From a virus, in IMG/VR virus record IMGVR_UViG_3300020055_000004: a DNA stretch of 64,000 nt; one strand, 5' to 3'. A program made the position numbers and the translations under genes. Below the pieces are notes generated by a model. That model ran no database searches and was not told where the DNA came from. It saw only the letters and a program-made list of their open reading frames with translations. This document shows, in pieces, positions 9,387 to 42,985 of the stretch. How positions within the stretch are numbered: position 1 is the stretch's first letter; the number at the start of each line of letters is the position of its first letter.

Positions 9387-10034
9387 ATGAATTATCAAAT
9401 TGCTTATCAGGAACTCGGCGCCACTAAATTTTTACGTACTCATGGTCGCGATGTAGTAGAAATCCTAGGACATAATGTTACTGTAAATAAAATCAATCGG
9501 TTTTTAGGTTCTCGTGGTAGTAATGTCTCGGATTTCTTTTGGCGAAATCGAAATCGATTGCACATCTATGGCATGTCTGTCGTCCAAGTAAATGAGAAAT
9601 GCCGAATTAAAATTAATGCTATTGGCCCCCGCGGCAACGTATTAAATTTTGTTGAAAATACTAATAAGCAACCTAATAAATTGGAGCCAGAAATGAAAGA
9701 ATCTCTTAAGGTTCTGCAAGAATGTGCTGAAGTACAAGTTAAAAAGTCAAACGACTATCAAAATGAATTCTCCCGCATTCGTCAAGCAGATTACTATCCT
9801 CGTGGTATCGCAACCATTACAGATCTAATCTATGCTAAAGTTCTTCGTATGCAATCAGTCATTGAAGCTAGTGAACGAGATCCTAACTATGAACCGAACT
9901 TCGAATCAATCGAAGATTCAGCTAAAGATCTAATCAACTATGCATCTTTTGTTGTTGCATATATGCGTGGTAAGATGGATGGACAAGAATCTAACCGTGA
10001 CTTTCTTAATAGGATCGTAAATGATTCAGAATAA
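9387..10034 (+). CDS. Nucleotide-modification-associated domain 1 (Nmad1/DUF1599-like) with N-terminal extension; possible internal start at 9693
   Basis: KKSNDY...K..R...ESIEDSAKDLINYASF; GGAG before ATG 9693. Confidence 0.7.
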   Translation: MNYQIAYQELGATKFLRTHGRDVVEILGHNVTVNKINRFLGSRGSNVSDFFWRNRNRLHIYGMSVVQVNEKCRIKINAIGPRGNVLNFVENTNKQPNKLEPEMKESLKVLQECAEVQVKKSNDYQNEFSRIRQADYYPRGIATITDLIYAKVLRMQSVIEASERDPNYEPNFESIEDSAKDLINYASFVVAYMRGKMDGQESNRDFLNRIVNDSE

Positions 10035-10698
10035 AGTAGAAGACATTCGTTGTTACTTTAAACAAGCTCTTCACGAGAAACGTTTCACCACAGATAAGAC
10101 TGGTCAAAAGACTATAGAACTTATTGGTGCTTCATTTCTCGCTGACGAGCCATCTATCTTTGGTAAACCGAATCAAAAATATATCAAGGCCGAAATCCAG
10201 TGGTATATGTCTCAGTCTACCAATATTAATGACATATATAGTAGAGATCGTAAACCACCAGAAGCATGGCAATATAGTGCTGATGCAAATGGTGAAATCA
10301 ATTCTAATTACGGCTATCTCATTTATAACGAACGCTTTGGTAATCAATATAAGCAAGTTCGTGATGAGATGATGAAGAATCCATACGGTCGCCGTGGTAC
10401 TATGATCTACAATCGACCATCAATATGGCACGAGTACAACGAGGGTGGCAAGTCAGACTTTATTTGTACCAATGCTGTAAGCTACTATCTTCGAGATCAT
10501 AAGCTACATGCAGTGGTTCAGATGCGCTCTAATGATGTAGTCTTTGGTTATAAGAATGACTATGCATGGCAACGATTTGTACTTGAAAATCTTGCATATG
10601 ATATTAGCCTACCACAACACGATGTTGGTGTTGGTACAATCACGTGGCAAGTACAAAATCTTCACGTATATGAACGACACTTTGATTTGGTAGAATGA
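10021..10698 (+). CDS. gp42: dCMP hydroxymethylase (gp42-like, thymidylate synthase fold)
   Basis: INSNYG, IYNRPS, DFICTN (catalytic Cys), MRSNDVVFGYKNDYAWQ with Asp at the dCMP-specificity position, LHVYERHF. Confidence 0.88.
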   Translation: MIQNKVEDIRCYFKQALHEKRFTTDKTGQKTIELIGASFLADEPSIFGKPNQKYIKAEIQWYMSQSTNINDIYSRDRKPPEAWQYSADANGEINSNYGYLIYNERFGNQYKQVRDEMMKNPYGRRGTMIYNRPSIWHEYNEGGKSDFICTNAVSYYLRDHKLHAVVQMRSNDVVFGYKNDYAWQRFVLENLAYDISLPQHDVGVGTITWQVQNLHVYERHFDLVE

Positions 10699-11111
10699 GA
10701 GTAGGATTTACTGCTTCAGCATTTGATCTATTACACGCCGGACATGTCTCAATGCTAAGAGAGGCAAAGACACAGTGTGACTATTTGATTTGTGGTTTAC
10801 AAGTAGATCCTGGTCTCGATCGATTAGAGAAAAACAAACCAATACAAACTTTACCGGAAAGATATATACAATTGTCAGCTGTAAAATATGTTGATGAGAT
10901 TATACCTTATGAAACAGAAATTGATTTGAAGGATATCTTAGAAACATTAAAAATCGATGTACGTATTCTTGGTGACGAGTATCGTAATCTAGATTTTACT
11001 GGCAAAGAGATATGCCAACAACGTGGCATTGAATTATATTTCAATCAACGAGATCATAGGTTTTCAACAAGTGATCTAAGAAAAAGAGTAACGTTATGTA
11101 CGGAGTCTTAA
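10695..11111 (+). CDS. Cytidylyltransferase (TagD / glycerol-3-phosphate CT-like)
   Basis: FDLLHAGH (HxGH), ER..QL.AVKYVDEI, RDHRFSTS. Confidence 0.88.
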   Translation: MRVGFTASAFDLLHAGHVSMLREAKTQCDYLICGLQVDPGLDRLEKNKPIQTLPERYIQLSAVKYVDEIIPYETEIDLKDILETLKIDVRILGDEYRNLDFTGKEICQQRGIELYFNQRDHRFSTSDLRKRVTLCTES

Positions 11112-11572: not shown

Positions 11573-11810
11573 ACTTCGTGATCCTCAGTTCTATGTCGTA
11601 TCGGCAAAGAATTTAGACGAGTTTATTGCGCGAGTAGAAAAAGAGTCAGGACAAGTTGTATTCATCGCGATGAGCGTTGCAGATTACGAATTGATGTCCT
11701 ATAATATGCAAGAAATCAAACGATATGTACAGCAGATGCAAGATGTGGTAGTATATTATCGTAGGGTAGTTGAAGACAACAATTCGAAAGTAGATGATAA
11801 CAACAACTAG
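11421..11810 (+). CDS. Putative outer-membrane spanin lipoprotein (Rz1-like)
   Basis: Signal peptide with lipobox LTTGC, Pro-rich linker; overlaps the Rz-like gene in another frame. Confidence 0.7.
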   Translation: MYSTALKMLLVLSISLTTGCSFLRTPEPEVVIQTKVVRVPITQPILPREIELRDPQFYVVSAKNLDEFIARVEKESGQVVFIAMSVADYELMSYNMQEIKRYVQQMQDVVVYYRRVVEDNNSKVDDNNN

Positions 11811-12975
11811 ATATTATGATGAGTTTATAAGGTACTTTAATTTAGCCTCTAAACAACAAGAGCTATGTAATGTATCTAATAAAGAACCTTATGGGATGAT
11901 CGCACACAAAGATTCGAATCTTGGTGATGATCTCATGGAGAATGTTGAATTGTATGATGTAGTCGAGCGTAAGTATGCTGGCTTCTCACAAATTATTAAT
12001 GATTGCTTTTATGGATGGACTGAAGATCATCCATATTGGAAAAAGATGGAGGCGGGTGTGTGCACTCGCCAACGAGAGACCGTTGCCAAAGACTGGACCG
12101 GTAAACACAACGTATTCTCTCTTCCTGAATGGCTGTATATTTTTATACTCCATCGGGTAACCGGTTCAGCAATTAACTATGCCCAAAAACCATCGGGCTA
12201 TTATAACACCATACTATTCAATCTACATCAATGTGATACGATTGAAGAAATGGTGCAGCTGGTGAAACACTACCCGGTATCCTTTTATACTTCAGTCGGA
12301 TACCAGTTCCCAGCATTTCCAAAACCAGTCGGTGACTATCGAAAGGGCGGCGACTATTACCTTGGTGAGTTCGCCCCAAGGCTGGCTCGAGATCTCGCGG
12401 ACCATTTGACGATGGGTCCTAAAAAGGACCTTCGCGAGATTGGAGAGTTTATGCTGAAGTGGAACGAGGACAACGGCCTTCGACGCTATCAGTTTCAGTA
12501 CGCAGCAGTAGTGGCTGACGTCGCCGACTGGTTTCCCCAATATGTGAACCGTGAGAGCATGTTCTATTACGGTACAAATGCAGTAGAATGTATTTCATAC
12601 CTCGCTTTTCCAGAAAAGAGGATGAAGAAAGAGTTGTTCCTTGATGCCGTCATGACAAAAATATATGATGATACAGGAAGTGTACCATATAATGCCGAAG
12701 ATGTATGTTGTGACTTCATTCGTTATGTTGAGAATTATGTCCGGCCAGGTCCGGATTATGATCATCTAGATTATGATACCCTGTGGTCGTCATGCGGCAT
12801 CAAGGATCACCCCTATGGCCGCCAGAAGTATATGCTAGATTTGGGTTTGGTAAATACTTTTAATGGCATGAAAAATCATCCATCTGATGACTTCATTTTG
12901 AAGAAAAACAATATGACTGCTGAAGAGTATCAACATAATGTAAATGCGAGGCTCCGATACAATGAAAATTTTTGA
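11794..12975 (+). CDS. aGPT-Pplase-like (HhH-fold) DNA base hypermodification protein, paralog 1
   Basis: Motif series DDLMENVELYDVVER / FQYAAVVAD / YGTNA / NAEDVCCDFIRY parallels aGPT-Pplase1 blocks (DPIL..YRF.NV.R / FMAYE..TD / GPGA / DIEHSLCEFDKY). Confidence 0.6.
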   Translation: MITTTRYYDEFIRYFNLASKQQELCNVSNKEPYGMIAHKDSNLGDDLMENVELYDVVERKYAGFSQIINDCFYGWTEDHPYWKKMEAGVCTRQRETVAKDWTGKHNVFSLPEWLYIFILHRVTGSAINYAQKPSGYYNTILFNLHQCDTIEEMVQLVKHYPVSFYTSVGYQFPAFPKPVGDYRKGGDYYLGEFAPRLARDLADHLTMGPKKDLREIGEFMLKWNEDNGLRRYQFQYAAVVADVADWFPQYVNRESMFYYGTNAVECISYLAFPEKRMKKELFLDAVMTKIYDDTGSVPYNAEDVCCDFIRYVENYVRPGPDYDHLDYDTLWSSCGIKDHPYGRQKYMLDLGLVNTFNGMKNHPSDDFILKKNNMTAEEYQHNVNARLRYNENF

Positions 12976-13222
12976 TTTAGAACAACAGATCTTAGATTGT
13001 TGGAAAGTAACTGACGACATTGATTTGGTGACAAAACATTTTGTTGATAGTCCAGAATGGGAAGGCATTGATCCAAAAGTTTGTGATGCGCTGATGAACA
13101 AGTATTTTGCTATCAAAGAACTGTATGAATTGAAGTTCAATGAGATGTGGGAATCCTTTGAGACAGTATGTAAAGAATATCATGAGGCAAGAAAAAATGA
13201 CGCTGACTCACTTTCTAGGTGA
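12962..13222 (+). CDS. Hypothetical protein
   Basis: FDLEQQILDCW.VTDDI phage-type small protein; RBS. Confidence 0.6.
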   Translation: MKIFDLEQQILDCWKVTDDIDLVTKHFVDSPEWEGIDPKVCDALMNKYFAIKELYELKFNEMWESFETVCKEYHEARKNDADSLSR

Positions 13223-14189
13223 ACATGATAATGATATTCAATACAATAATATCGCTGAAGTAGATTACAAAAACGGCAAACCAACATCATCGTGGCTAAA
13301 AGACTGGTGCCAAGAAGCTCGAACGAATAAGTTCTTCGAGTTTTGTCGTGCCTATGACGAGCGTAAAGACTTCCTGCTCAAGAATAACTATCAACAGTTC
13401 TCACATCGTTTGCACTGGCATGAGTGCCCGTTTGTCGAGGAAATGGCACAATTAAAAGATCGTGCCAAATTAATCGAAGGATGTGTCCTGTTTTCTTTTA
13501 GCAACGAGCATTGGCAAACATTTAGAGCATGGAAAGATCATGGCTATGATGGCATGAAGGTACGGTTCTCGAATTATCGGCATGCACGTTCTGATCTCTT
13601 TCAGATCTATTATCCAAAAGATACCAAAGTCAAAGATTGGTTGATTGAAACACCAGCTCGTGTAGCAATTGAACTAGATGCGATGTTTGATGGCATGAGA
13701 CGACCAATGACGATGATGGAGTTCGCCAAGAAGATGAATATCATCATGGTACGCGATTTTGGTTTTCGTAATGCCATGTATCCGTCAAAGAATGCAGCAC
13801 GCCATGTTGCAATGAGTCATCCTGAATGGGTTGATCCTGACTCATTCTTACATGGCGGAACGGGATACTTCGATGGTCTATCACAAATCTTTGACTGTCC
13901 ACATCTCATGTCAAAATCAAAGTATGAGATCGATGAGAATGGTGAATACGTACCAATGAATAAGTGGGCAGAGATGCAGGTCCAACACATGGACTATCTA
14001 AAGAATCATCCTAGCAATCCGATTCATACACATCAGTATCTCAACTTAGAAGACAAATTGTGTATGCATTATAAATTTATGTCGATGAAACTTGGTTCCA
14101 AAAAACAGACAAAAATGATACCATATAACTGGGTGTATCCAGACAATTGGTCACTAAAAACAAATAGGTACGATCGTGTCACACAATAA
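13197..14189 (+). CDS. aGPT-Pplase-like DNA modification protein, paralog 2
   Basis: DFLLKNNYQQFSHR / GFRNAMY / GGTGYFDGL / NLEDKLCMHYKF mirror the blocks in paralog 1. Confidence 0.55.
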   Translation: MTLTHFLGEHDNDIQYNNIAEVDYKNGKPTSSWLKDWCQEARTNKFFEFCRAYDERKDFLLKNNYQQFSHRLHWHECPFVEEMAQLKDRAKLIEGCVLFSFSNEHWQTFRAWKDHGYDGMKVRFSNYRHARSDLFQIYYPKDTKVKDWLIETPARVAIELDAMFDGMRRPMTMMEFAKKMNIIMVRDFGFRNAMYPSKNAARHVAMSHPEWVDPDSFLHGGTGYFDGLSQIFDCPHLMSKSKYEIDENGEYVPMNKWAEMQVQHMDYLKNHPSNPIHTHQYLNLEDKLCMHYKFMSMKLGSKKQTKMIPYNWVYPDNWSLKTNRYDRVTQ

Positions 14190-15057
14190 TCATGTAATCG
14201 ATGGCGTTAATAAAGACGTAGGAGTTTTTGGCTATGAAGCAGCAAGAGAATATTATCTATCTTTGTGCGAAGGATGGGAACCGTACAACCCCGAACCGGT
14301 TGTACGAGAACACGATGGCATTCGAGTCGTACGAGATGACCTTATCGTGGGGACAAAAGCGAGAGCTGGAGATCTCCTTGCAAGTCGATGCCCCTCAGAC
14401 ACAATTGTATACTGTCAACCTCGCACCGGACTCGCCGGAGTTTCCATATTGGACTGTGCAAAACGATATAATAAAGACGTAATACTATTCATGCCATCGT
14501 CTCAGCGCGTCTCTTTACATCAGGCATGCTGCATTGAACGTGGCGCTAAACCTATCTTTAAACGTATCGCCGCTATGCCAAATTTAAACAAAGCAGCTAA
14601 AGAATATGCAGAGAAACACGGATACTTTTTTGTCCCACTCGGACTTAGACATGAATTGGCGACTGCAGCTATAGTACACACTGCTATACAAATACCAGAA
14701 CCTGAAGAAGTATATGTGGCTACATCGACAGGTGTACTTAGTAGGGCATTGCAAATCGCGTGGCCAAGAGCTAAGTTTACGAGTATCGCAGTGGCGAGGA
14801 ATCTTAAAGCCGGAGAATTAGGAAGAGCAGATGTCATATCAGAACCACTCGCTTTTACAGCATCTGAAAAGAAACAAAATTTACCTCCATTTCCTTCGAT
14901 TGATACGTACGATGGAAAAGTCTGGAAGTACATTCCAAAAAACACGGGTCGGGATATTCTGTTTTGGAATGTTGGTACTGAACCTAGTTTACAAGACCAT
15001 AACATATATGATAGAATAGATTCATATCGCGATTGGGAGAAAAAAGATGTTGCGTAG
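14176..15057 (+). CDS. PLP-dependent enzyme, fold type II (ACC deaminase / Cys synthase-like)
   Basis: VRDDL..GTKAR (Schiff-base Lys), VATSTGVL, TYDGKVW, ILFWNVG. Confidence 0.8.
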   Translation: MSHNNHVIDGVNKDVGVFGYEAAREYYLSLCEGWEPYNPEPVVREHDGIRVVRDDLIVGTKARAGDLLASRCPSDTIVYCQPRTGLAGVSILDCAKRYNKDVILFMPSSQRVSLHQACCIERGAKPIFKRIAAMPNLNKAAKEYAEKHGYFFVPLGLRHELATAAIVHTAIQIPEPEEVYVATSTGVLSRALQIAWPRAKFTSIAVARNLKAGELGRADVISEPLAFTASEKKQNLPPFPSIDTYDGKVWKYIPKNTGRDILFWNVGTEPSLQDHNIYDRIDSYRDWEKKDVA

Positions 15058-16150
15058 TGGTTTAGTAGCTACACCGTTTATTACTATTTCACGCCAAATG
15101 ACCAGCCATCGTGCTGCTCAAGGTGTAATATATGCAGATCAACTTTCTGAGGCCAATATTGGTACAATTAAAGTAAACATGACAGGTGATCAGTATGTCT
15201 CCGATTTTTGTGATTTCGATGATCTTTATGTGTATCATGGTAATGATTGGTCTGGTAACGTTAATCTCTTTGGCGGCCTCAAAAACTTCCCATATATTGA
15301 GAATTTTGTCAATTTCTCTCGTTTCGACGGCCGTGTGTATAGCCTTGTGGTCGACATGCCTGACTATTATGGTATCATGAAAGAAAAGTTTGATAAAGCC
15401 AGAGAGAAAGGACAAGAATGGAATACTTTATGGGATGGCATTGATTGGGATAATCTGAAGCGCATGTGTGAAACTGCAGTGACAATCAATCCTAATGATC
15501 TACGACATTATCCTCGCATGGCAATTGGTGACAGCCATGCCATTTGTATGTACCGACCAGGCTGGTCAAATCTATCAGTGCCATTTAAAACACTACACGG
15601 CGCATTAAAAGAAGGTCTTGAATCTTTTATTCCGAAAGATAGATGTTTTACTGATCTAGAATTTTATTTTGGCAACATTGATGTTCGTCATCATCTTTGT
15701 AGACAAGATGATCCAATTCTTGCTACTAAACAACTTGTTGCTCGTTATATGGAACAAGCACATGCCATATCACAAAAATATAGTTGCCGTGTCAAGATCT
15801 ATGAACTCTTGCCTATCGAAGACGAATCACGATCGATTCCAAAAACTGGTTGGTATAAAGGCACTCCATTTTATGGCTCGCGCCAAGAGAGAAATGATAT
15901 TCGTAAGTTGTTTAAAAATGAAGTAATGAAGCGTTGTACTGATGAAGTTCAGATATATGAATGGGTTGGCGAAATGATTAATTCAAAAGGCGAACTTGGT
16001 TTTGAATACATGGAGAAACCACAGTCGGTGCACTTATCTAGACGCTGGTATCCACATTGGCAAGGATATGAGTGGAGTCATGCTCCGTATATTGAATATA
16101 TACCTACAGCAGAACGTGAACAATTAACGCTTGAGGATTTCTTTTCGTAA
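15047..16150 (+). CDS. Putative DNA-modifying enzyme: beta-glucosyltransferase-like N-domain + SGNH domain + clamp-binding tail
   Basis: NLFGG...RVYSLVVD resembles T4 BGT NFFGG...KIYYLFTD; IGDSHA, FGNID, SVH SGNH blocks; C-terminus LTLEDFFS. Confidence 0.55.
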   Translation: MLRSGLVATPFITISRQMTSHRAAQGVIYADQLSEANIGTIKVNMTGDQYVSDFCDFDDLYVYHGNDWSGNVNLFGGLKNFPYIENFVNFSRFDGRVYSLVVDMPDYYGIMKEKFDKAREKGQEWNTLWDGIDWDNLKRMCETAVTINPNDLRHYPRMAIGDSHAICMYRPGWSNLSVPFKTLHGALKEGLESFIPKDRCFTDLEFYFGNIDVRHHLCRQDDPILATKQLVARYMEQAHAISQKYSCRVKIYELLPIEDESRSIPKTGWYKGTPFYGSRQERNDIRKLFKNEVMKRCTDEVQIYEWVGEMINSKGELGFEYMEKPQSVHLSRRWYPHWQGYEWSHAPYIEYIPTAEREQLTLEDFFS

Positions 16151-17358
16151 TGAAGCATGCAACTATTATACCACTGATCGGAGGTGAAGTACTTGCCTCT
16201 GAGCAAGTCTTTGGTCATCGACCAGATTATATCTTATCTTATAATGCTTTTCAGGCAAATGAAGAACATCTACTAAATTATTGGAATCATGAGGTACCGT
16301 ACTACGTTCTAGATGAAGGAGATCGCCATCCGCACTCAGTAGACGTAGTGTCCAGTGTATGTCCTTGTGCTGGCTTGTCATTGTTCAGTACGCGTTATGG
16401 AGAGGACAACAAAAACAATCGTTGGATGATTGAAACGGCTAAGTATGTTCTTGGCGAGATCAAGCCTCTTGTATTTTGGGGAGAGAATGCCCCAACTTTC
16501 ACGGGTAAAATCGGTGAACCTATTCGAAACCAATTGATTCAAATTGGTAAGGAGAATGGCTATGTCATGTCGATGTATAAAACGAAAAGTCTGTTACACG
16601 GTATACCACAAACGCGCGAGCGAACATTCTACTTCTTTTGGAAAGGTACACAAGTTCCGGTATTTGACTACTATCGAAGAGAAATGCAAACTATCGAGGA
16701 CCTTATCCTCTCCGTCGAGCGCGATCCTAATGATCCGATGTCCGAATGCATAAATCGAAACAAACCAACCGACAATCCATTTTACAAATATATTTTGGAG
16801 GAGATTCATGGCGGTATTAGCCATCGCGACCACTTTGACCTTATCGATATCACTGATCCTAAAACACCGAATTACTTGGACGTCTATAGCCTTATTGAGT
16901 CTCATAAGCATGATTACGCTCGCGTTGCTAAATGGTTAGAGGAACGTCAATATCATCGTGAATCACAGCGTGCATTGCGAATGTATGATAAGCTAGAATC
17001 TGGTGGTAATATTATGCGCAGAGGTACTTTGTTGCCTAAAGGTCATATTGGATCTTTTGTAGGTCACTATCCACAAATGCTAACTCATCCTCATGAAGAT
17101 CGATATATAACCTTTAGAGAGGCGATGACAATTATGGGTATGCCAAGTGACTATCAGCTTCTTAATCCGAAAGGTAGCTTCAATCATATATGTCAGAATG
17201 TTCCGTTTCAAACTGCAGCTGATATGGCAACCGAAGTAAAAGCTGTATTAAATGGAGAACGAGAATTGATTGACGCGCGCGTATCATTACAACATAATAC
17301 ATCAAAAAAATTAGAAATTTTAGATAGAGAAGTATCTACACTAGATGCATTTTTATAG
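16150..17358 (+). CDS. C5-cytosine DNA methyltransferase-like protein with atypical motif I
   Basis: CPCAGLS (IV), ENAP (VI), PQTRERTF (VIII), RYITFREAMTIMG.P (IX), QNVP (X); motif I is IPLIGG. Confidence 0.8.
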   Translation: MKHATIIPLIGGEVLASEQVFGHRPDYILSYNAFQANEEHLLNYWNHEVPYYVLDEGDRHPHSVDVVSSVCPCAGLSLFSTRYGEDNKNNRWMIETAKYVLGEIKPLVFWGENAPTFTGKIGEPIRNQLIQIGKENGYVMSMYKTKSLLHGIPQTRERTFYFFWKGTQVPVFDYYRREMQTIEDLILSVERDPNDPMSECINRNKPTDNPFYKYILEEIHGGISHRDHFDLIDITDPKTPNYLDVYSLIESHKHDYARVAKWLEERQYHRESQRALRMYDKLESGGNIMRRGTLLPKGHIGSFVGHYPQMLTHPHEDRYITFREAMTIMGMPSDYQLLNPKGSFNHICQNVPFQTAADMATEVKAVLNGERELIDARVSLQHNTSKKLEILDREVSTLDAFL

Positions 17359-17410: not shown

Positions 17411-18385
17411 ATGGAACTTAATATTCCAGTACAAGAGTTACAAAAATATAAAATCTTTTTGGCGACACCAATGTATGGTGCACAATGTTCTGGAATGTAT
17501 GCTAGATCGTTGGCTGAATTGACAACAACATGTCAGCGATATGGCATTCCATTACAATTTTATTTTCTATTCAATGAATCGTTAGTTACACGAGCACGTA
17601 ATTATTGTGTAGATGAATTTATGCGATCTGATTGTACACATCTTATGTTCATTGATTCAGATATTCATTTTAAGGCACATGATGTAGTATCTCTATTAGG
17701 AATGATGCATCAATATCCTGAGATGGATGTATGCTGTGCTCCTTATCCGAAGAAAACAATTGCGTGGGAAAAAATTAGTGAAGCAGTAAAACAAGGTGTA
17801 GCTGATGAGAATCCAAATGTTCTAGAAAACTTTGTTGGTGATTATGTCTTCAATCCTATTAGACAAAAAAATGGTGAAAATTATATTAAACTAACTCAAC
17901 CTGCAGAAGTAGCTGAGGGTGGTACAGGCTTCATGATGATCAAGAAGTCAACCTTTGAAAAATATAAAGAAACATATCCTCAATTCATGTATCGTCCTGA
18001 TCATGTTCGAACAGCAAACTTTGATGGAAGTACTGAGATCATGGCATACTTCGATGCTCTCATTGATGATAAGTCACAAAATCTTGTACCTGAAATCAAA
18101 GCATTCTTTAAAAAGAATCCAAATGCAAAAAATAGAGATGTCATCAACTTTATTGAAGATAAGAAAAATGGCATCGATCAAAAGTCATATTCGAATAGAT
18201 ACCTGTCCGAAGATTACATGTTTTGTTATAATGTAAGACGTGCTGGTATGAAAGTATTCATGTGTCCTTGGATGGAACTCAAACATATGGGCGCATACGT
18301 ATTTGGTGGTTCATTGGCAGCTATTGCATCTATTGGTGCAGCGGCTACAGCTGATCCCTCTAAACTTGGTGAAAAGAAAAAATAG
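17411..18385 (+). CDS. GT-A fold glycosyltransferase-like protein
   Basis: ATPMYG, ESLVTRARN, THLMFIDSDI (DxD), GTGFMMI, YLSEDYMFC. Confidence 0.75.
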   Translation: MELNIPVQELQKYKIFLATPMYGAQCSGMYARSLAELTTTCQRYGIPLQFYFLFNESLVTRARNYCVDEFMRSDCTHLMFIDSDIHFKAHDVVSLLGMMHQYPEMDVCCAPYPKKTIAWEKISEAVKQGVADENPNVLENFVGDYVFNPIRQKNGENYIKLTQPAEVAEGGTGFMMIKKSTFEKYKETYPQFMYRPDHVRTANFDGSTEIMAYFDALIDDKSQNLVPEIKAFFKKNPNAKNRDVINFIEDKKNGIDQKSYSNRYLSEDYMFCYNVRRAGMKVFMCPWMELKHMGAYVFGGSLAAIASIGAAATADPSKLGEKKK

Positions 18386-18396
18386 GAAACTATACT

Positions 18397-19053
18397 ATGA
18401 AACTTAATGCTCGATCTGTACAGGTCTTGAAAAACTTCTCAACAATTAATCCTTCGATTCAATTTCGCGAAGGTAATGCGTTGAAAACAATCTCGCCTAA
18501 TAAGACTATCATGGCAAAAGCAAATCTCGAGGATAATATTCCTCAGGACTTTGCAATCTATGATTTGTCTAGATTTCTTGGTGTATCATCTTTGTTTGCA
18601 GATCCGGACTTTCAACTTGAAGATCGTACTGTAGTGATTACATCACCGGGTCGTAAGGTAAATTACACCTTTGCAGATCCTAACACTATTGTTGCACCAC
18701 CTAACAAAGATATCGATATTGGTGACGCTGATGTATCATTTGAACTCAATCAAGAAAACTTCGCCGAAATTATGAAAGCTCTTGGTGTAATGTCATTTCC
18801 TGAGTTGGTGGTTGCTGGTGAAGATGGTCGTATTATTTTACGAGCCACTGATACTAAGAATCCAAGTTCAGACAAATATGATATTGAAGTTGGTGAGACT
18901 GATCGAACATTCACCGCAGTATTCAAGACAGAAAATGTCAAGATCTTACCAGATAATTATCGTGTAAGTTTGTCATCGCGTGGCATCTCACACTTCGCTT
19001 CAGACGATGTTGAATACTGGATCTCAATTGAATCCAACTCAACATTCGACTAA
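18397..19053 (+). CDS. gp45: Sliding clamp gp45
   Basis: VLKNFSTINPSI, FAIYDLSRFL, ENVKILPDNY.V, YWISIE. Confidence 0.95.
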   Translation: MKLNARSVQVLKNFSTINPSIQFREGNALKTISPNKTIMAKANLEDNIPQDFAIYDLSRFLGVSSLFADPDFQLEDRTVVITSPGRKVNYTFADPNTIVAPPNKDIDIGDADVSFELNQENFAEIMKALGVMSFPELVVAGEDGRIILRATDTKNPSSDKYDIEVGETDRTFTAVFKTENVKILPDNYRVSLSSRGISHFASDDVEYWISIESNSTFD

Positions 19054-19504: not shown

Positions 19505-20743
19505 ATGGGTACGAAAAGGAGTTACAAACCGGAGGCAGTAGATAAGCTACGAGGATCAGTACAAATTGATCATACACTCGCGAGGCTTGGAGCAAGGAAG
19601 CTGAGACAACTATTCGAAGAAAACGAATATATTAACACATTTGGTGCATACAATGGGCAACAAGCTGTACAACATGTCAAGGCAGGATTAAAAGCAATCT
19701 ATTGTTCTGGTTGGCAGGTAGCAGCATCTCAGAACTCGGCCGGCGAAGTATATCCGGATCAATCCTTGTATCCTGTAAACTCTGTACCTGATGTTGTTCG
19801 AAATATTAATAATGCGTTTAGGCGACAAGATCAAATTGATGTATTAAATGGTGGAGATGGTTTTGATTTTGCACCTATTATCGCAGATGCAGAAGCTGGA
19901 TTTGGAGGAGTACTAAACGCATATGAACTGGCACGAAATCTCATTGAAGCCGGTGCTGCAGCTGTGCATTTCGAAGATCAGCTCGCTTCTGAAAAGAAAT
20001 GCGGACACCTCGGTGGTAAAGTACTTATTCCGACTAGCAGTGCTGTTCGTAATCTTAACGCCGCTCGACTTGCTTCTGATGTGGCTGGTACTGACACAGT
20101 CATCATTGCCAGAACAGATGCAGAATCTGCTAAACTCCTTTCATCTGACGTAGATGCAATGGATAACAAATATATCAAGAGATATGGTGGTCAAGGATCC
20201 GCTACAATGCGATCTCGTACATCAGAAGGTTTCTTTGAAATTAATGGCGGTTTAGATTTTTGTATAGAACGAGGTCAGAGATATGCAGAGTACGCTGACC
20301 TGATATGGTGTGAAACCTCGAAGCCTTGTCTTAAGGAAGCAAAAAGATTTGCTGACGGCGTACGTGGCGCATATCCTGATCAAATGCTAGCATATAATTG
20401 TTCGCCTTCTTTTAATTGGAAGAAAGCAATTCCAAATGATCAAGAACTTGCAGAGTTTCAACGTGAGTTAGGTAAGTTAGGATTTAAGTTTCAGTTTATT
20501 ACATTAGCTGGCTTTCATGCAACAAACTATGCTGTTTTTGACTTCGCTCGACGATATAAAGAAGATGGTATGTTTGCCTATTCATTATTGCAAGAAGATG
20601 AGTTTAACAGTGAAATCTTTGGATATACTTCAACCAAACACCAACAAGAAGTTGGAGTCGGATACTTTGATGCAATATCTAACGTGCTTGGTTCTTCGTC
20701 AACGGCTGCACTCAAAGGTTCCACAGAAGAAGAACAGTTTTAA
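19505..20743 (+). CDS. aceA: Isocitrate lyase
   Basis: [40 protein letters not shown] signature, [32 protein letters not shown]. Confidence 0.97.
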
Positions 20744-21447
20744 TGGATTTGATTAAGAGCAAGTTTGACATTAAGGGTTGGACTCTCTTAACAAATTTTT
20801 TGACACCAGAAGAACACGAATATTATCTCGATATATGTGATCATATTCTTCTTAATAGAATTCAGCCGTCATATAAATGGGCGCTCAACTCAAATGGTAC
20901 TATAAACAAATTACACGGTGCTTGTGAGACCGTCCCTGCATTTCGAAAATTGGCCAGTCATCCATCTTTGATTCGTCAGGCTAAAAGCTTATTGCCATTT
21001 GAAGAAGAAATGGATATCTATATCAGTAAGTTCTTCCCTATGCAGCCAAAAGCAATTTCTACTTTGATGCATCAAGATAATTATTTTTTTCGTGGAGATC
21101 CTCAAAAAATATTATCATGTGCTGTATATCTTCAAAATACATCAACAGAAAACGGATGTCTGCGTGTTGTTGAAGGTAGTCATTTGAGAGGTATATTTCC
21201 TCATAATATTGATGAGGAAGGAATTGCTCAGTGGATCGACCAGCGAGAACTTACAGATTATAAAATAATAGAACTTAATTTAAAAGCACCTTATGCTGTA
21301 TTTTTTAACATAAATCTAGTGCACGGCTGCAGTATGAATATGACTGATTCAACTCGATACAGTTTAGCATGGGAATATGTAAATAAAACCGACAATAATT
21401 TGACGGTTTCCGCTGAAAAATGGTGTGATAGAATTTCTGTCTTATAA
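20743..21447 (+). CDS. Phytanoyl-CoA dioxygenase-family 2OG-Fe(II) oxygenase
   Basis: HQD, ENGCLRVVEGSH, LVHG, R. Confidence 0.85.
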   Translation: MDLIKSKFDIKGWTLLTNFLTPEEHEYYLDICDHILLNRIQPSYKWALNSNGTINKLHGACETVPAFRKLASHPSLIRQAKSLLPFEEEMDIYISKFFPMQPKAISTLMHQDNYFFRGDPQKILSCAVYLQNTSTENGCLRVVEGSHLRGIFPHNIDEEGIAQWIDQRELTDYKIIELNLKAPYAVFFNINLVHGCSMNMTDSTRYSLAWEYVNKTDNNLTVSAEKWCDRISVL

Positions 21448-28774: not shown

Positions 28775-29044
28775 ATGTCTGATATAATGACTTTCTGCAC
28801 CATCACTGGTGAGATTATTGGTAGATTAAAAGAAGAGAACGACACTTCCTACGTAGTAGAAAATCCACGACTATTTGGTCAATCTGAGCAAGGTGTTGGC
28901 TTTGTCCCGGGTGTATGCATGACCGGTAAGCGCGAACCTTCTGAAGCTACACTGAACAAAGCCATGATTAGTTGTGTTGTAGAAACTGATGAAAATATTG
29001 TCAAGGCTTGGCAACAACAAACTTCTGGCATTGTACTTCCGTAA
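28775..29044 (+). CDS. Hypothetical Sm-like protein
   Basis: TGEIIGRL...NPR, C-terminal TSGIVLP. Confidence 0.6.
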   Translation: MSDIMTFCTITGEIIGRLKEENDTSYVVENPRLFGQSEQGVGFVPGVCMTGKREPSEATLNKAMISCVVETDENIVKAWQQQTSGIVLP

Positions 29045-30543
29045 TGCTACATCAAGTAACGCCGTTAGATGCAGTATATCATATATTAAAAACTGGTACC
29101 AAAGAACAGTTGCTAGCAGATGAACATCTTGTTAATTTTTACAATCAATTTAATATAAAAATTGTACCATATCAAGAAGTTTTAAAAATTCTCAAACCTG
29201 TTGAACGAGCACAATCTGAAGTACACTACGGAAGAATAATTAGTGAGATGCTATCTAAAAATGATGATGTTGAAGATCCGAATCAACACTATCTAGAAAA
29301 CTGTGAACCCGGAACACGTTCCTATGATGTCAGACAATTTACAAAAATGTCATGGCTAATTAATGATATTAAAAATCATGGTTTAAAAGAACCTATCACT
29401 GTAATCTTATCTCCCGAATATAATGCAGACACGCAGGAAATTAATATTAAAAAAGTTTCTCATCCGGGTTCATTTAGATTTCATGCATTACAAATAATGG
29501 ATTTAAATCCTGATATTATTGTATTCGATCATTTTAATTTTTTACCTGAATATAAAAAGGTAGGTCTAGAAGATCTATTAAATCTATATAATGACGATGA
29601 TACGTATTTTGAAATAGCAATACTTCCAAATCCGGATAACCATTTAACACCACAAATTTTAAACATTGCAGGACAATCAAGAAATGGATTGATGATGGAA
29701 TCAATCGAAAAATATTTCGAAGATCATACAAAAAAAGTGTTTAATAAAAAATGGAAAATATTTGTTGGGTATGATGGTAAACATACTGATGCTGCTGCTA
29801 CATGTGTTAATAGTATCTACTATGCTATGGGCTCTCAAATGTCAAAAACCGTAGAAGTAGAATTACTCGATATATCAAAGATACCAGAATATACCAGAGA
29901 ATATAAAAATCAAAGTACAGAGTTTGCATATTCACGATTTCTAGTACCTTATCTTTCGAATTATGAAGGTATGAGTATTTTTGTTGATGATGATTATATT
30001 TTTACCAAAGATATTCGAAATTTATTTTATTTTATTAATCACGATCAAGCTGTATCATGTGTTCAACATAATTTTGAAGAAAAATATAATACTAAATTTA
30101 ATAATGAAAAAGACGTTTGGTATCCTAAAAAACTGTGGTCAAGTTTAATGGTATTCAATAATGAACATCCTGATTGTAAAAAATTAACACCAGAAATTGT
30201 AAATACAGAATCTGGAAAATATTTGCATCAGTTCGAATGGACAGATAAGATTGGATCTATACCAAAAATGTGGGCATGGACAGAAGGATACGATGATATA
30301 AATAGTATACATCATGCTCGAGGTTTACACTGGACAAGAGGTGGCCCTTGGATTGAAGACATGAATTGTAGTGAAATTCAAGGACTGAGTTTATATGATT
30401 ATTATAGATCTAGGCACATAGATCTAAAAGTTTTTCAATCTAGATTTTGTGCATTCGTTAATCCACATGAGTGGTATGATATGAATGAACCTTTGATAGA
30501 TGAAAATAGTGGAACTAAAACCGTACTAAAAAGAGGTAAATGA
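29044..30543 (+). CDS. ParB/Srx-like domain fused to GT-A (GT8-like) glycosyltransferase
   Basis: DIKNHGLKEPITV...PGSFRFHAL; IFVGYD, STEFAYSRFLVPYL, IFVDDD, KLWSSLMVFN, HWTRGGPW. Confidence 0.7.
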   Translation: MLHQVTPLDAVYHILKTGTKEQLLADEHLVNFYNQFNIKIVPYQEVLKILKPVERAQSEVHYGRIISEMLSKNDDVEDPNQHYLENCEPGTRSYDVRQFTKMSWLINDIKNHGLKEPITVILSPEYNADTQEINIKKVSHPGSFRFHALQIMDLNPDIIVFDHFNFLPEYKKVGLEDLLNLYNDDDTYFEIAILPNPDNHLTPQILNIAGQSRNGLMMESIEKYFEDHTKKVFNKKWKIFVGYDGKHTDAAATCVNSIYYAMGSQMSKTVEVELLDISKIPEYTREYKNQSTEFAYSRFLVPYLSNYEGMSIFVDDDYIFTKDIRNLFYFINHDQAVSCVQHNFEEKYNTKFNNEKDVWYPKKLWSSLMVFNNEHPDCKKLTPEIVNTESGKYLHQFEWTDKIGSIPKMWAWTEGYDDINSIHHARGLHWTRGGPWIEDMNCSEIQGLSLYDYYRSRHIDLKVFQSRFCAFVNPHEWYDMNEPLIDENSGTKTVLKRGK

Positions 30544-40447: not shown

Positions 40448-42985
40448 ATGACTGAATTTTACACAAACGTTTTACAATACGGTCAAAGCCTTTACATACG
40501 AGGCTTCGACTCCGATGGACAACGCCTGCAGCGCCGCGTACCTTATCAACCATATCACTTCGTTTCTTCGAATGTTGAGACTGGTTATACGGATATTCAT
40601 GGTAATCCGGTGCAACGGAAAGATTTCGACTCAATACGTGATGCTCGTGATTTCCTCAAACGATATGAGGAAGTCGAGGGCTTTAATGTATTCGGTCTAG
40701 ATCGTTACCCTTACACCTTTATATATGATAATTTCAAGTCGCAAGATCCTGACACATCAAAAATCAATATCGTCAATATCGATATCGAGGTGGCATCCGA
40801 TGATGGATTCCCAGAGCCTGAAGACGCCGACAAAGAGATCACAGCCATTGCTCTTCGTCGACGCAATCTAAAGGTCGTACTCGGCTGTGGTGACTTTACA
40901 CATGATGAAGAAAATCTATACTATATCAAGTGTAAAAACGAGTACGGCCTCTTGCATAAATTCCTTGATATCTGGCAACAAATGGATCCTGACGTGGTGA
41001 CTGGTTGGAACACAGAGTTTTTCGATATTCCATATCTTGTCAATCGTATCACCAAGATCTGTAGCGAAGATGCAGTCAAACGTATGTCGCCTTGGGGTAT
41101 CATCAAAGAAAAGAAAGTCTATCGTCAAGGTAGCGACAAGCAATCTCAGACGTATCAACTTTTTGGTGTCTCTGCTCTCGATTATTTGGCCGTGTACAAA
41201 AAGTTTCGACTTCAACCTCGCGAGTCATACAAACTGGACTTCATTGCCGAGACTGAACTTGGTACCAAAAAGTTAGACTACAGCGAGTACGGTAATCTAC
41301 ACGAGTTGTACAAGAACAACTATCAAAAGTTTATTGAATACAACATTAAGGATACTGACCTCATCTTCGAACTGGAAGAGAAGCTTGGCTTCCTCGAGCA
41401 AATCTTTACAATCGCATATGATGCTAAGGTCAACTTCAATGATGCTCTGGCATCTGTGCTCATATGGGATGTGATCATCCATAACTATCTCATGGATCAG
41501 AATAAAGTGGTGTCAATGAAACGACCACCGATGTCTGATCGTCGTATCGAAGGTGGTTATGTCAAAGATCCAATCGTAGGCATCCACAATTGGGTAATGT
41601 CATTCGACCTCAACTCTCTGTATCCACACTTGATTCAGCAATATAACATATCACCCGATACGGTGCTCAATAAGTTCGATGATCTATTTCCTATTACAGC
41701 TAAAGCATCAGTTGATAATTTACTCAGTGAAGATATCGATCTCACTGAACTTAAAAACTTTGATGTCACTATGACACCAAATGGAAAAATATATCGACGA
41801 GATCGCCAAGGTTTCTTGCCTGCTCTCATGAAAAAGATGTACGATGATCGTGTATTATATAAGAAGAAGATGCTCGAGTGTAAGCAAGCATATCAAGAAA
41901 ATCCTACACGTCAACTCGAGATTGATATCTCTCGTTATCATAATCTACAACACGCCAAAAAGATCCAGCTAAACTCAGCTTATGGTGCACTTGCTAACAA
42001 ATACTTTCGTTGGTTCGATAATGAAAACGCCGAAGCTATTACGATGGCTGGTCAATTGTCCATTCGATGGATCGAGAAGAAACTTAACACGTGGCTCAAT
42101 GATATTCTCAAAACGAAAGGTAGAGATTATGTCATTGCTATTGACACCGATTCAGTGTATGTTTCATTTGATAAGATGATTGAACTAACACAACCAAAAA
42201 ATCCTGTAGAGTTTCTTAATAAAGTTGCCGATAAACAAGTTGAACCATTCATCGATCGATCATATCAAGAACTGGCAGACTACACCAATGCCTATGCACA
42301 GAAGATGTTTATGAAGCGAGAGAATATCGCCGATAAAGCCATCTGGACTGCCAAGAAGAGATACATCATGCATGTATGGGATTCGGAAGGTGTACGTTAC
42401 AAAGAACCTGAACTAAAGATGATGGGTATCGAAGCTATTCGTTCGAGTACTCCGGCCGTATGTCGTGACTATATTAAACAGACACTTAAACTACTGATGA
42501 CCACTGACGAAGAGACAGTGCAGAAATACATTGCCAAGATTCGCGAAGAGTTTCGTACATTGTCATTCGAAGAAGTGGCCTTCCCTCGTAGTTGTAACTT
42601 TATCAAGTGGGAACGTAACTCTCAAGGTAAAGCGTATCCATCGACGTATGCAGATGACAAGATCATATACAAGAAAGCTACACCGATTCAGGTCAAAGGT
42701 GCTCTACTGTACAACTGGTATTTAGATAAATATAACTTGAAGAAACGATACGAAGAGATTAAGTCTGGCGAGAAAATTAAGTTCAGCTATCTCAAGAAAC
42801 CAAACCCGATACACGACTCGGTGATATCGTGTCCTGATGTACTACCACGAGAATTCAATCTCAACGAGTACATTGATTACGACACACAGTTCGTGAAAGG
42901 CTATCTCGATCCGATAGAAATCATACTTCATGCTATCGGATGGAAGTCGGAAAAAGTATCAACACTCGAGGATTTTTTCTCATGA
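40448..42985 (+). CDS. gp43: Family B DNA polymerase gp43
   Basis: DIEV ExoI, GWNTEFFDIPY, SFDLNSLYPH, KIQLNSAYG, IDTDS, KKRY; clamp tail STLEDFFS. Confidence 0.98.
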   Translation: MTEFYTNVLQYGQSLYIRGFDSDGQRLQRRVPYQPYHFVSSNVETGYTDIHGNPVQRKDFDSIRDARDFLKRYEEVEGFNVFGLDRYPYTFIYDNFKSQDPDTSKINIVNIDIEVASDDGFPEPEDADKEITAIALRRRNLKVVLGCGDFTHDEENLYYIKCKNEYGLLHKFLDIWQQMDPDVVTGWNTEFFDIPYLVNRITKICSEDAVKRMSPWGIIKEKKVYRQGSDKQSQTYQLFGVSALDYLAVYKKFRLQPRESYKLDFIAETELGTKKLDYSEYGNLHELYKNNYQKFIEYNIKDTDLIFELEEKLGFLEQIFTIAYDAKVNFNDALASVLIWDVIIHNYLMDQNKVVSMKRPPMSDRRIEGGYVKDPIVGIHNWVMSFDLNSLYPHLIQQYNISPDTVLNKFDDLFPITAKASVDNLLSEDIDLTELKNFDVTMTPNGKIYRRDRQGFLPALMKKMYDDRVLYKKKMLECKQAYQENPTRQLEIDISRYHNLQHAKKIQLNSAYGALANKYFRWFDNENAEAITMAGQLSIRWIEKKLNTWLNDILKTKGRDYVIAIDTDSVYVSFDKMIELTQPKNPVEFLNKVADKQVEPFIDRSYQELADYTNAYAQKMFMKRENIADKAIWTAKKRYIMHVWDSEGVRYKEPELKMMGIEAIRSSTPAVCRDYIKQTLKLLMTTDEETVQKYIAKIREEFRTLSFEEVAFPRSCNFIKWERNSQGKAYPSTYADDKIIYKKATPIQVKGALLYNWYLDKYNLKKRYEEIKSGEKIKFSYLKKPNPIHDSVISCPDVLPREFNLNEYIDYDTQFVKGYLDPIEIILHAIGWKSEKVSTLEDFFS

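Follow-up and report, generated by a model that had tools for sequence, protein, structure and literature searches.

The window analysed here, a 64-kb stretch of a larger phage genome, contains an open reading frame (15047..16150) that encodes a protein of 367 residues, a member of PHROG 13881/17781 that belongs to no Pfam family; this and all features described below lie on the plus strand. The model of this protein is of high confidence (pLDDT of 96.1) and consists of two domains: the N-terminal domain (residues 1~152, 15047..15502), which resembles the N-terminal domain of the T4 DNA β-glucosyltransferase (BGT), and the C-terminal domain of SGNH fold (residues 153~354, 15503..16108), beyond which the chain ends in a short tail, TLEDFFS (16127..16147). 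A first-pass annotation had read the protein as a BGT-type acceptor domain fused to an SGNH acyl-enzyme possibly acting on 5-hydroxymethylcytosine (hmC), and all the residues it quoted are present in the translation, namely DFDDLYV (residues 56~62), NLFGG...SLVVD (73~103), IGDSHA (160~165), FGNID (208~212) and SVH (327~329).

Sequence searches revealed a large family, with 1158 homologous proteins at E ≤ 0.001 in a word-indexed search and 410 distinct representatives in an exhaustive search. The carriers are mostly uncultured phages, in addition to cultured T4-like phages of Aeromonas (44RR2.8t, 31 and 25). A Pfam scan of the protein returned no family at E ≤ 0.1, PDB sequence searches with the single protein or with a 71-sequence profile gave nothing meaningful, and megablast of the gene cluster against 50,697 phage records yielded no match. 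The family is not described in the literature that we searched for SGNH proteins together with hydroxymethylcytosine, aGPT-Pplase or β-glucosyltransferase. Conservation is given hereafter as counts in an alignment of 71 family sequences.

Gene cluster and conserved synteny

The open reading frame is embedded in a cluster of genes for DNA modification and replication. Upstream of it, a gp42-type dCMP hydroxymethylase (10021..10698), the source of hmC, shares 52% identity with T4 gp42 (E-value of 2e-81) and keeps the specificity Asp in the ND motif; Asp likewise occupies this position in the TS-like genes that neighbour distant members of the family. Two helical proteins follow, one of 393 residues (11794..12975), the homologues of which are fused to the C-terminus of target-family proteins in other phages, and its distant paralogue of 349 residues (13140..14189), as indicated by hhalign (probability of 94.9%, E-value of 4e-8). 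The ESM-Atlas clusters nearest to the 393-residue protein carry PF18723 in 11~36% of their members and, in one cluster, PF18724 in 12%; the 349-residue protein also has Atlas clusters with PF18723/PF18724. Both proteins may accordingly resemble amino-acid:DNA transferases (HMUDK_hel/AADT-like). Comparison of the two protein groups by hhalign against a Pfam-positive HMUDK_hel group, which comprised only three sequences, gave a probability of 0.1%, so that this assignment stays a lead drawn from language-model neighbours and sub-threshold Pfam matches.

The start of the target open reading frame is overlapped by the gene of a PLP-enzyme-like protein (14176..15057; phrog_7093, E-value of 9.5e-35), which has a weak PALP match of its own; PALP was also recorded on the syntenic gene of another phage contig, L012. 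Downstream, the start codon of a C5-cytosine-methyltransferase-like protein (16150..17358; PF00145, E-value of 4.6e-16) overlaps the target stop codon, followed by a GT-like protein (17411..18385; phrog_1574) that is conserved at the downstream side of the cluster, and by the gp45 sliding clamp (18397..19053; PF09116, E-value of 3.8e-14; phrog_223). PDB sequence searches with the two helical proteins, the PLP enzyme and the GT-like protein returned nothing useful.

A similar gene order was found in four other phage contigs, which encode a gp42-like protein, a dCMP deaminase, the helical proteins, the PLP enzyme, the target, the GT-like protein and gp45. The syntenic helical proteins have about 390 and about 330 residues, except in L012, which has a single one of 346 residues, and the methyltransferase-like gene is present in three of the four contigs. 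In many phages, the target family sits between the replication genes and the hmC genes.

N-terminal domain homologous to that of T4 β-glucosyltransferase

In an hhalign comparison, 71 N-domains aligned with 31 homologues of BGT at a probability of 98.2% and an E-value of 4e-14 over 104 columns. Structural similarity search with the N-domain model ranked T4 BGT first among 48,161 chains, with a Z-score of 7.8 and an RMSD of 2.8 Å over 112 residues, compared to a Z-score of 5.9 for the runner-up, and Foldseek also recovered BGT (PDB 1qkj) with a probability of 1.00 and an RMSD of 3.7 Å. The superposition of the N-terminal half on the BGT N-domain, which the first-pass annotation had named as a check on its proposal, was therefore obtained. 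At the sequence level, a single BLASTP comparison of the target against T4 BGT (b-gt, PF09198) showed 25% identity over 52 residues (E-value of 0.004), and PF09198 matched nine of the 71 family members below threshold (best E-value of 0.0037), with no match to the target protein itself over the Pfam gathering threshold. BLASTP reproduced the gapless alignment proposed earlier, placing target residues 73~104 on BGT residues 70~101 with a five-residue gap ahead of them, and the BGT peptide quoted for this alignment is 100% identical to b-gt of T4. As judged from these profile and fold comparisons, the two N-terminal domains are homologous, beyond merely sharing a fold.

The hhalign alignment covers only BGT residues 1~116 and places N73, G76 and G77 of the target on N70, G73 and G74 of BGT. 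These residues belong to the N73-L-F-G-G77 loop (15263..15277), which aligns on N70-F-F-G-G74 of BGT and is fully or almost fully conserved in the two families; together they share the pattern YD...N-x-F-G-G within a Rossmann-like domain (PDB 1c3j, 1qkj and 1j39 for BGT). In BGT, the N-terminal domain presents the flipped-out hmC. We propose that the N-domain of the target would likewise provide recognition of DNA and of the base through these shared elements. Both proteins occur in hmC-making T4-like phages and presumably act post-replicatively on hmC-containing DNA.

By contrast, the catalytic base of BGT is not conserved. The earlier claim that the catalytic-base Asp is retained at the same spacing did not hold in the family: position 103 is Pro in 25, Asp in 21 and Glu in 10 of the 71 sequences, an acid at either 101 or 103 is absent in 18 of them, and T99-D100 of BGT, invariant among the 31 BGT homologues, falls in a gap of the target family in the hhalign alignment. 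Compared to BGT, the Asp100 of which has no conserved counterpart here, the target family possesses a near-invariant pair, Ser20-His21 (15104..15109; 69 of 71 each), at the start of the first helix of the N-domain. This pair, which is missing from BGT, may contribute active-site residues.

A Z-score of 7.8 is in the middling range, and would also suit a protein that acts on hm-dCMP/hm-dCTP, a sugar or an envelope polysaccharide, its likeness to BGT reflecting no more than a common Rossmann-like scaffold. SGNH proteins deacetylating surface glycans are frequently encoded by phages, and several phage proteins named ‘GDSL-like lipase’ were matched. However, we consider such a role highly improbable: the BGT profile homology exceeds what a shared fold would give, the protein carries a tail identical to that of the polymerase, its gene lies between the replication and hmC genes, and its relatives are fused to a family whose annotation derives from DNA-base kinases and transferases. 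A surface-glycan esterase in particular was rejected in view of the gene context and the tail.

SGNH-fold domain in the C-terminal half

Structural similarity search with the C-domain identified SGNH/GDSL enzymes, with Z-scores of 14.8 (PDB 2hsj), 13.2 (PAF-AH, PDB 1bwp) and 13.2 (sialate esterase, PDB 7pzg) over 150~176 aligned residues; Foldseek gave an E-value of 5e-6 and a probability of 1.00. The O-acetyltransferases PatB (PDB 7tjb/8tlb) and OatA (PDB 5ug1/6vjp) were also matched, with Z-scores of about 10, so that the same three-layer α/β/α fold is shared over Z-scores of 10~15, most of the matches being hydrolases such as PAF acetylhydrolase and sialate and xylan esterases. A GT-B reading of this domain was rejected, as all the listed matches confined to residues 148~359 are of SGNH type, with BGT absent among them. 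The C-terminal UDP-glucose-binding domain of BGT, marked by the family-invariant R191, R269 and E272, was not encountered in the target, the hhalign alignment stopping at BGT residue 116. Compared to T4 BGT, the target has an SGNH domain in place of the UDP-glucose domain, as the first-pass annotation had stated; of its structural interpretation, both domain assignments stand, and Asp103 as a conserved catalytic base falls.

The SGNH blocks I (GDS), II (G), III (N) and V (H) occur in the right order, each following its expected strand in the model. Block I, G161-D-S163-H164 (15527..15538), is invariant in all 71 sequences and immediately follows the domain's first strand, with Ser163 as the presumed nucleophile. 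Block II is represented by G185 (63 of 71). Block III, Y207-F-G-N210-I-D212-x-R214-H215-H216-x-x-R219 (15665..15703), contains the oxyanion Asn (N210, 65 of 71) followed by an invariant Asp/Arg/His cluster that is atypical of SGNH esterases, and the block V region, M322-E323-K-P-Q-S-V-H329 (16010..16033), holds an invariant His (H329, 71 of 71) and an invariant Glu. The canonical acid of the DxxH motif is absent, position 326, three residues ahead of the His, being Arg in 29, Lys in 18 and Gln in 17 of the 71 sequences; the invariant Glu323 might take its place. We propose that Ser163, Gly185, Asn210 and His329 would make up a site for covalent catalysis that faces the cleft between the two domains. 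Compared to SGNH/GDSL enzymes, the target lacks Pfam-level membership and the Asp at His-3, possesses the invariant Glu323 and the extra residues D212, R214, H215, H216, R219, R262 and R282, and is a cytoplasmic protein fused to a DNA-glucosyltransferase domain within a DNA-modification cluster.

The dense set of invariant Arg and His residues (H164, R214, H215, H216, R219, R262 and R282) surrounds the nucleophile, is uncommon among acyl esterases and may bind a phosphate-bearing ligand instead of an acyl donor, or contact the DNA backbone. The former suggests an analogue of a kinase, in which Ser163 passes a phosphoryl or other anionic group to hmC on an SGNH scaffold, giving a 5-phosphomethyl-type intermediate like the one with which 5-HMUDK provides amino-acid:DNA transferases. 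The SGNH Ser can accept phosphoryl adducts, as seen in two complexes among the Foldseek matches, with sarin (PDB 3dt8) and paraoxon (PDB 3dt6), and the family fills the slot of the P-loop domain beside HMUDK_hel, with Walker A absent from the proteins checked. Nevertheless, the Arg and His residues may do no more than contact the DNA backbone and no nucleotide-binding motif was recognised in the target, which make this chemistry very unlikely; we know of no SGNH enzyme that catalyses phosphoryl transfer.

As for acyl transfer, no acyl-CoA- or tRNA-binding element was recognised in the target. The characterised SGNH O-acyltransferases PatB and OatA receive their acetyl groups from membrane partners, and a cytoplasmic, DNA-directed SGNH O-acyltransferase is, to our knowledge, without precedent. 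The same structural evidence that suggests acyl transfer, with PatB and OatA among the structural neighbours, would also fit O-acyl-hmC as the end product, that is, a final acyl (e.g. acetyl) or aminoacyl ester, for which the helical, PLP and GT-like proteins would serve another branch or the supply of the donor. The first-pass annotation had named such a final modification among its options; we regard this end product as distinctly unlikely. Fusions of the target to the helical family, found in at least eight long forms (see below), argue instead for a joint reaction, and an ester on the 5-methylene of a pyrimidine is readily substituted, a property expected of an intermediate more than of a packaged base.

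Clamp-type tail, fusions and proposed role in hmC modification

The C-terminal TLEDFFS of the target also ends the gp43 DNA polymerase encoded in the window (42962..42982), the two heptapeptides being identical. Such a tail occurs in only three of the 84 open reading frames of the window, and the C5-methyltransferase-like protein encoded next to the target also ends in a clamp-type tail, VSTLDAFL. Across the target family, the tail motif was found in 96 of 227 C-termini, compared to 0.66% of interior control windows, an enrichment of about 60-fold. It is likely, from this sequence identity with the polymerase, that the peptide docks on the sliding clamp, with gp45 as the partner.

Prediction of the complex between three copies of gp45 and target residues 153~367 gave a score of 0.44, compared to 0.00 for the best of three controls, and lends this weak support, with the runs agreeing in at least 38% of contacts and a partner pLDDT of at least 67. 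Among solved complexes, 58 of 80 attained the mark for this score, as did two of 110 mismatched pairs; at scores of 0.60 or under, the mark was attained by only seven of those 80 and by both mismatches. As a solved complex of the polymerase peptide with the clamp exists, the score may reflect likeness only. T4 α-GT co-purifies with gp45 and provides a precedent for a clamp-bound DNA-modifying enzyme, whereas T4 β-GT did not co-purify (PMC13216743). Similar to α-GT, the target would be a DNA-modifying enzyme that rides the clamp, a feature that would distinguish it from BGT. Docking through TLEDFFS would let it act on newly replicated DNA.

Further insights come from long forms of the family. 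Six of them (678~790 residues) join the target family to homologues of the 393-residue helical protein, as phmmer of the latter against the C-terminal halves of P0162, P0182, P0184, P0227, P0250 and P0257 gave E-values from 1e-24 to 1e-51. In P0149 the target family is fused to HMUDK_hel (PF18723, 43.1 bits against a cut-off of 25, E-value of 4.5e-11), and in ORF233c of Aeromonas phage 44RR2.8t to a weak HMUDK_hel match, so that the fused forms number at least eight. Pairwise BLASTP of the helical neighbours against the fused C-terminal halves of ORF233c and P0149 was uninformative, the link coming from phmmer on the other fusions. A search of 14 helical and fused proteins for Walker A ([AG]xxxxGK[ST]) was negative throughout; it covered selected open reading frames in the 64 kb of the window together with the fusions, and a kinase may be encoded elsewhere in the genome.

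The hypermodification of thymidine in phages M6, ViI, PaMx11, PhiW-14 and SP10 proceeds by 5-HMUDK together with aGPT-Pplase/AADT (PMC5889632, PMC8989533). This pathway and the present cluster have in common a hydroxymethylase of TS-like type, two paralogous helical proteins that may resemble DNA-base transferases, and a PLP enzyme, and the target family is fused to HMUDK_hel-type domains in the way that the P-loop kinase domain is in 5-HMUDK. They differ in the base, which is cytosine rather than uracil to judge from the gp42-type enzyme with its specificity Asp, and in the lack of a P-loop in the target. Given the serine-esterase fold of the domain presumed to carry out activation, an ester rather than a phosphate would be the leaving group.

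Altogether, the protein is most likely an undescribed two-part enzyme for the modification of hmC, combining a BGT-type half that would grip the base, a serine-esterase/acyltransferase domain and a putative clamp-docking tail, and most likely helps to turn hmC in phage DNA into a modification other than a sugar. The hmC role proposed in the first-pass annotation gains new support from the polymerase-identical tail, the gp42-type synteny and the fusions to the family of the helical neighbour. With a probability of about 0.45, we propose that it works on hmC in phage DNA as a clamp-tethered enzyme of Ser163-dependent group transfer, leaving an ester as the leaving group. In this mechanism, a soluble ester or thioester would donate an acyl or aminoacyl group to Ser163, from which it would pass to the 5-CH2OH of hmC, and the resulting ester would be displaced by the adjacent, sometimes fused, HMUDK_hel/AADT-like helical proteins, with the PLP enzyme and other members of the cluster completing the modification. 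The target would thereby stand in for the P-loop kinase that acts on 5-hydroxymethylated bases of DNA in thymidine hypermodification.

The SGNH domain could instead hydrolyse, for example by trimming or unmasking a group placed on the 5-methylene of cytosine by the AADT-like proteins or some other enzyme, or by recycling mis-modified bases to hmC. Such a DNA-directed esterase would accord with the hydrolases that make up most of its SGNH-fold relatives and with the intact catalytic blocks, and the gene context and fusions fit any step of a pathway, not only the first. It is nevertheless unlikely: fusion to a helical transferase-like domain points to two coupled steps carried out on one flipped base, and a stoichiometric writer that acts genome-wide would account more readily for a full BGT-type base-presenting domain together with a clamp tail. 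Moreover, if the domain hydrolysed, no activating enzyme would be left for the pathway, given that no Walker A was found in the helical and fused proteins checked.

Taken further, the serine-ester transfer proposed here might make this widespread family of over 1,000 sequences the first enzyme to esterify a DNA base, a serine acyl-enzyme on a glucosyltransferase-derived scaffold that activates hmC at the replication fork, replaces a kinase and leads to a chemically undescribed hypermodification of cytosine; we hold this fuller picture to be conceivable, though on balance doubtful. Known post-replicative hypermodification comprises that of thymine, by a kinase and an amino-acid:DNA transferase, and the glycosylation of hmC, and a non-sugar route on hmC is not described in the literature searched. 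If activation by a serine ester is true, it would represent new chemistry among enzymes acting on DNA bases, offer a new handle for the enzymatic labelling of 5hmC, and explain how cytosine is shielded from restriction and CRISPR nucleases in abundant environmental phages.

The architecture also illustrates domain shuffling clearly, the acceptor domain of a GT-B enzyme having been re-used with a different catalytic partner domain. Near a distant homologue of the target, a PF18723 protein of 499 residues is encoded.

Two-domain architecture of the target protein

The window derives from the genome of a T4-like phage and encodes gp23, UvsW, gp46/47, the gp45 clamp with its gp44 loader, the gp43 polymerase and a helicase resembling gp41; no close DNA relative was found among 50,697 phage records. 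The 367-residue translation of the target ORF (15047-16150, +) contains all the peptides quoted in the first-pass annotation. A Pfam search of the protein assigned no family, and PHROGs placed it in families 13881 and 17781, both of unknown function. Its homologues (the family) comprise 1158 proteins at E ≤ 0.001 in a word-indexed search, and 410 representatives at 50% identity in a separate one. Their source labels point to metagenome collections (JGI, ENA, Logan and Tara) or read 'uncultured Caudovirales phage'; cultured T4-like phages of Aeromonas and Stenotrophomonas carry the family as well, and Tenacibaculum phages share homology with the C-terminal half only.

The AlphaFold model, built from a 71-sequence alignment (A1), has two domains with a pLDDT of 96.1, or 96.6 for the N-domain modelled separately. 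Structural similarity search against 48,161 representative PDB chains revealed that the N-domain best matches T4 beta-glucosyltransferase (BGT), with a Z of 7.8 and an RMSD of 2.8 Å over 112 residues (model 3-152 on BGT 1-165), compared to a Z of 5.9 for the runner-up chain. Foldseek gave BGT a probability of 1.00 and the sole low RMSD among the matches listed, and a search of viral structures ranked members of the family itself on top, followed by a 351-residue entry that we take to be BGT. The BGT peptide that the first-pass annotation had quoted matches the T4 sequence exactly, and its ungapped register was reproduced by BLASTP from N73 (BGT N70) on, weakly, at 25% identity and an E-value of 0.004 for one comparison. 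Support independent of structure came from hhalign, in which the profiles of 71 N-domains and 31 BGT homologues aligned over 104 columns (98.2% probability, E 4e-14), placing the family NLFGG on BGT NFFGG and the preceding YD on BGT YD. The BGT model PF09198 was matched below threshold by 9 of the 71 members. Given these BLASTP, structural, profile and sub-threshold Pfam results, the N-domain is homologous to the N-terminal domain of BGT, well beyond chance.

Asp103, previously taken as the conserved catalytic base, is not conserved: column 103 holds P in 25, D in 21, E in 10 and K in 5 of 71 sequences, an acid at 101 or 103 is missing in 18 of them, and the invariant T99-D100 of BGT falls opposite a gap in the hhalign alignment. 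Helix 1 begins with a near-invariant Ser20-His21 pair (69/71), which would be the stronger candidate base or ligand contact. The target is not a BGT family member, since the donor domain and catalytic Asp are absent and the score lies below the Pfam threshold.

The earlier reading of the C-terminal half as SGNH agrees with the fold: residues 153-354 match 2hsj (Z 14.8), PAF acetylhydrolase (13.2) and sialate O-acetylesterase (13.2), as well as the peptidoglycan O-acetyltransferases PatB and OatA (about 10), and Foldseek gave an E-value of about 5e-6; that the domain has a hydrolytic role we consider unlikely. In the alignment and the model, the SGNH signature residues keep the right order and secondary-structure context, namely G161-D-S163-H164 (71/71), the conserved T182-L-x-G185 and Y207-F-G-N210, and S327-V-H329 (His in 71/71). 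There are two departures from the SGNH canon. Position His-3 is R/K/Q instead of Asp, with Glu323 invariant, and there is an extra invariant set of D212, R214, H215 (70/71), H216, R219, R262 and R282. This Arg/His cluster suggests phosphoryl-type transfer, a chemistry that we regard as improbable here. A few family members weakly match the Lipase_GDSL, Lipase_GDSL_2 or SGNH Pfam models; fold and motifs, but no curated model, place the target in the SGNH superfamily as a divergent member.

Gene neighbourhood, fused homologues and C-terminal tail

The TS-like gene at 10021-10698 shares 52% identity with T4 gp42 dCMP hydroxymethylase, including the specificity Asp; a MazG/PRA-PH-type protein is encoded upstream. 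The target gene order is shared with four other phage contigs: PRA-PH, gp42-like, dCMP deaminase, proteins of about 390 and about 330 aa, PLP enzyme and target family, followed by C5-MTase-like, DUF3310, a GT-like gene of about 285-330 aa and gp45. Two exceptions are L005, without the C5-MTase-like gene, and L012, with just one helical gene (346 aa). In a different phage type (L013), a 33%-identical homologue lies between TS-like, dUTPase/DCD-family, inositol-1-phosphate synthase, 499-aa HMUDK_hel protein and PolB genes; a further homologue was found near a weakly PALP-like gene. The specificity Asp is also present in the TS-like genes adjoining distant family members, and in the gp42-like gene of Aeromonas phage 44RR2.8t (cytosine-type).

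The helical neighbours of 393 aa (11794-12975) and 349 aa (13140-14189) are distant paralogues (hhalign 94.9%). Among their nearest ESM-Atlas clusters, HMUDK_hel (PF18723) occurs in 10-36% of members and PF18724/ADDT in one cluster (12%), a lead, not proof, that they are HMUDK_hel/ADDT relatives. No Walker A motif was found in the helical neighbours or the fused proteins checked. In six long proteins (678-790 aa), the family domain precedes a clear homologue of the 393-aa neighbour (phmmer E 1e-24 to 1e-51). The 981-aa P0149 (L004:1331-4276), whose gene adjoins a 277-aa TS-like gene, runs from an FkbM methyltransferase through a Pfam-positive HMUDK_hel domain to the family domain, and Aeromonas phage ORF233c combines the family with a weak HMUDK_hel match.

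The target ends with TLEDFFS, the identical seven residues that end gp43. Such a tail occurs in 3 of 84 ORFs, the third being the adjacent C5-MTase-like ORF (VSTLDAFL), and the motif is present in 96 of 227 full-length family members versus 0.66% of interior windows. Polymerase-type tails dock on gp45, as known from RB69 and T4 polymerase-clamp work. Complex prediction with three gp45 copies and residues 153-367 scored 0.44 (best of three controls 0.00; run agreement at least 38% of contacts; partner pLDDT at least 67), lending weak support to docking of the target tail. The complex-prediction mark is reached by 58/80 solved complexes and 2/110 mismatches, and at a score of 0.60 or under by just 7/80 solved complexes and both mismatches. 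As the polymerase-peptide/clamp complex is already solved, the score may reflect likeness only. A precedent for DNA modification by a clamp-associated enzyme is T4 alpha-GT, which binds gp45, whereas T4 beta-GT does not (PMC13216743).

The gp42-like gene, synteny, fusions and tail all point to 5-hydroxymethylcytosine (hmC) in DNA as the likely substrate; a substrate other than DNA appears very improbable.

Proposed activation of hmC

In thymidine hypermodification, a P-loop kinase phosphorylates 5-hmdU in DNA, an aGPT-Pplase/AADT of helix-hairpin-helix fold, often a paralogous pair, puts an amine or amino acid in place of the phosphate, and tailoring by PLP enzymes or others follows (PMC8989533). 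The target cluster likewise has a paralogous helical pair and a PLP-enzyme-like gene (14176-15057). The base is cytosine, no kinase motif was found among the proteins checked, and a BGT-N/SGNH protein is encoded next to the helical proteins or fused with them. The most economical reading is that the target supplies the activation step, acting like the kinase half of a 5-HMUDK, yet not being one.

We propose that the BGT-type domain presents hmC, and that Ser163 delivers a group turning 5-CH2-O- into a leaving group. O-acylation was chosen because acyl is the default group for the SGNH fold; we infer the donor, chemistry, step order and binding, while the folds, homology, conservation, tail, synteny and fusions are directly observed, and give this reading a probability of roughly 45%. 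An ester on hmC could instead be the end product, which seems rather doubtful. The target would bring a new catalytic module, and probably a new activation chemistry, to the post-replicative hypermodification of hydroxymethylpyrimidines; a literature search found no description of the family, or of SGNH domains tied to hmC or aGPT-Pplase systems.

Further genes in the window and in related phages

Directly 5' of the gp42-like gene lies a gene (9387-10034, +) whose product weakly matches DUF1599 (nucleotide modification associated domain 1; E 1.5e-4) and which is syntenic in relatives (L005). Overlapping the end of the gp42-like gene, a small cytidylyltransferase-like protein (10695-11111, +; PF01467, E 2.9e-13) may make a CDP-activated donor. 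The ESM Atlas version of the 349-aa neighbour (13140-14189, +) begins at residue 15 (read as M), so its true start may be the ATG at 13182, not 13140. The start codon of the C5-cytosine-methyltransferase-like gene (16150-17358, +; PF00145, E 4.6e-16) overlaps the target stop, in a phage that appears already to replace C by hmC; C5-MTase-type folds are able to transfer other groups, as in the phage C5-carboxymethyltransferase CmoX (PMC12783734).

Just 3' of gp45, at 19505-21447 (+), lie genes for a full-length isocitrate lyase (PF00463, E 1.5e-94) and, immediately after it, a PhyH-type dioxygenase (PF05721, E 3e-21). Sugar nucleotide for the GT-like gene at 17411-18385 may be supplied with the help of a fusion of HAD phosphatase and sugar-nucleotidyltransferase (45511-46866, +; PF13419, PF00483) or of a 511-aa protein weakly matching GT8 (29008-30543, +). 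In Aeromonas phage 44RR2.8t (L001:5399-9379), the fused 795-aa ORF233c comes directly after the sodium:solute symporter-like ORF234c. The myo-inositol-1-phosphate synthase gene (L013:9193-10389; PF01658) beside the 33%-identical family member, with the 499-aa HMUDK_hel protein close by, suggests that the substituent differs in that lineage.
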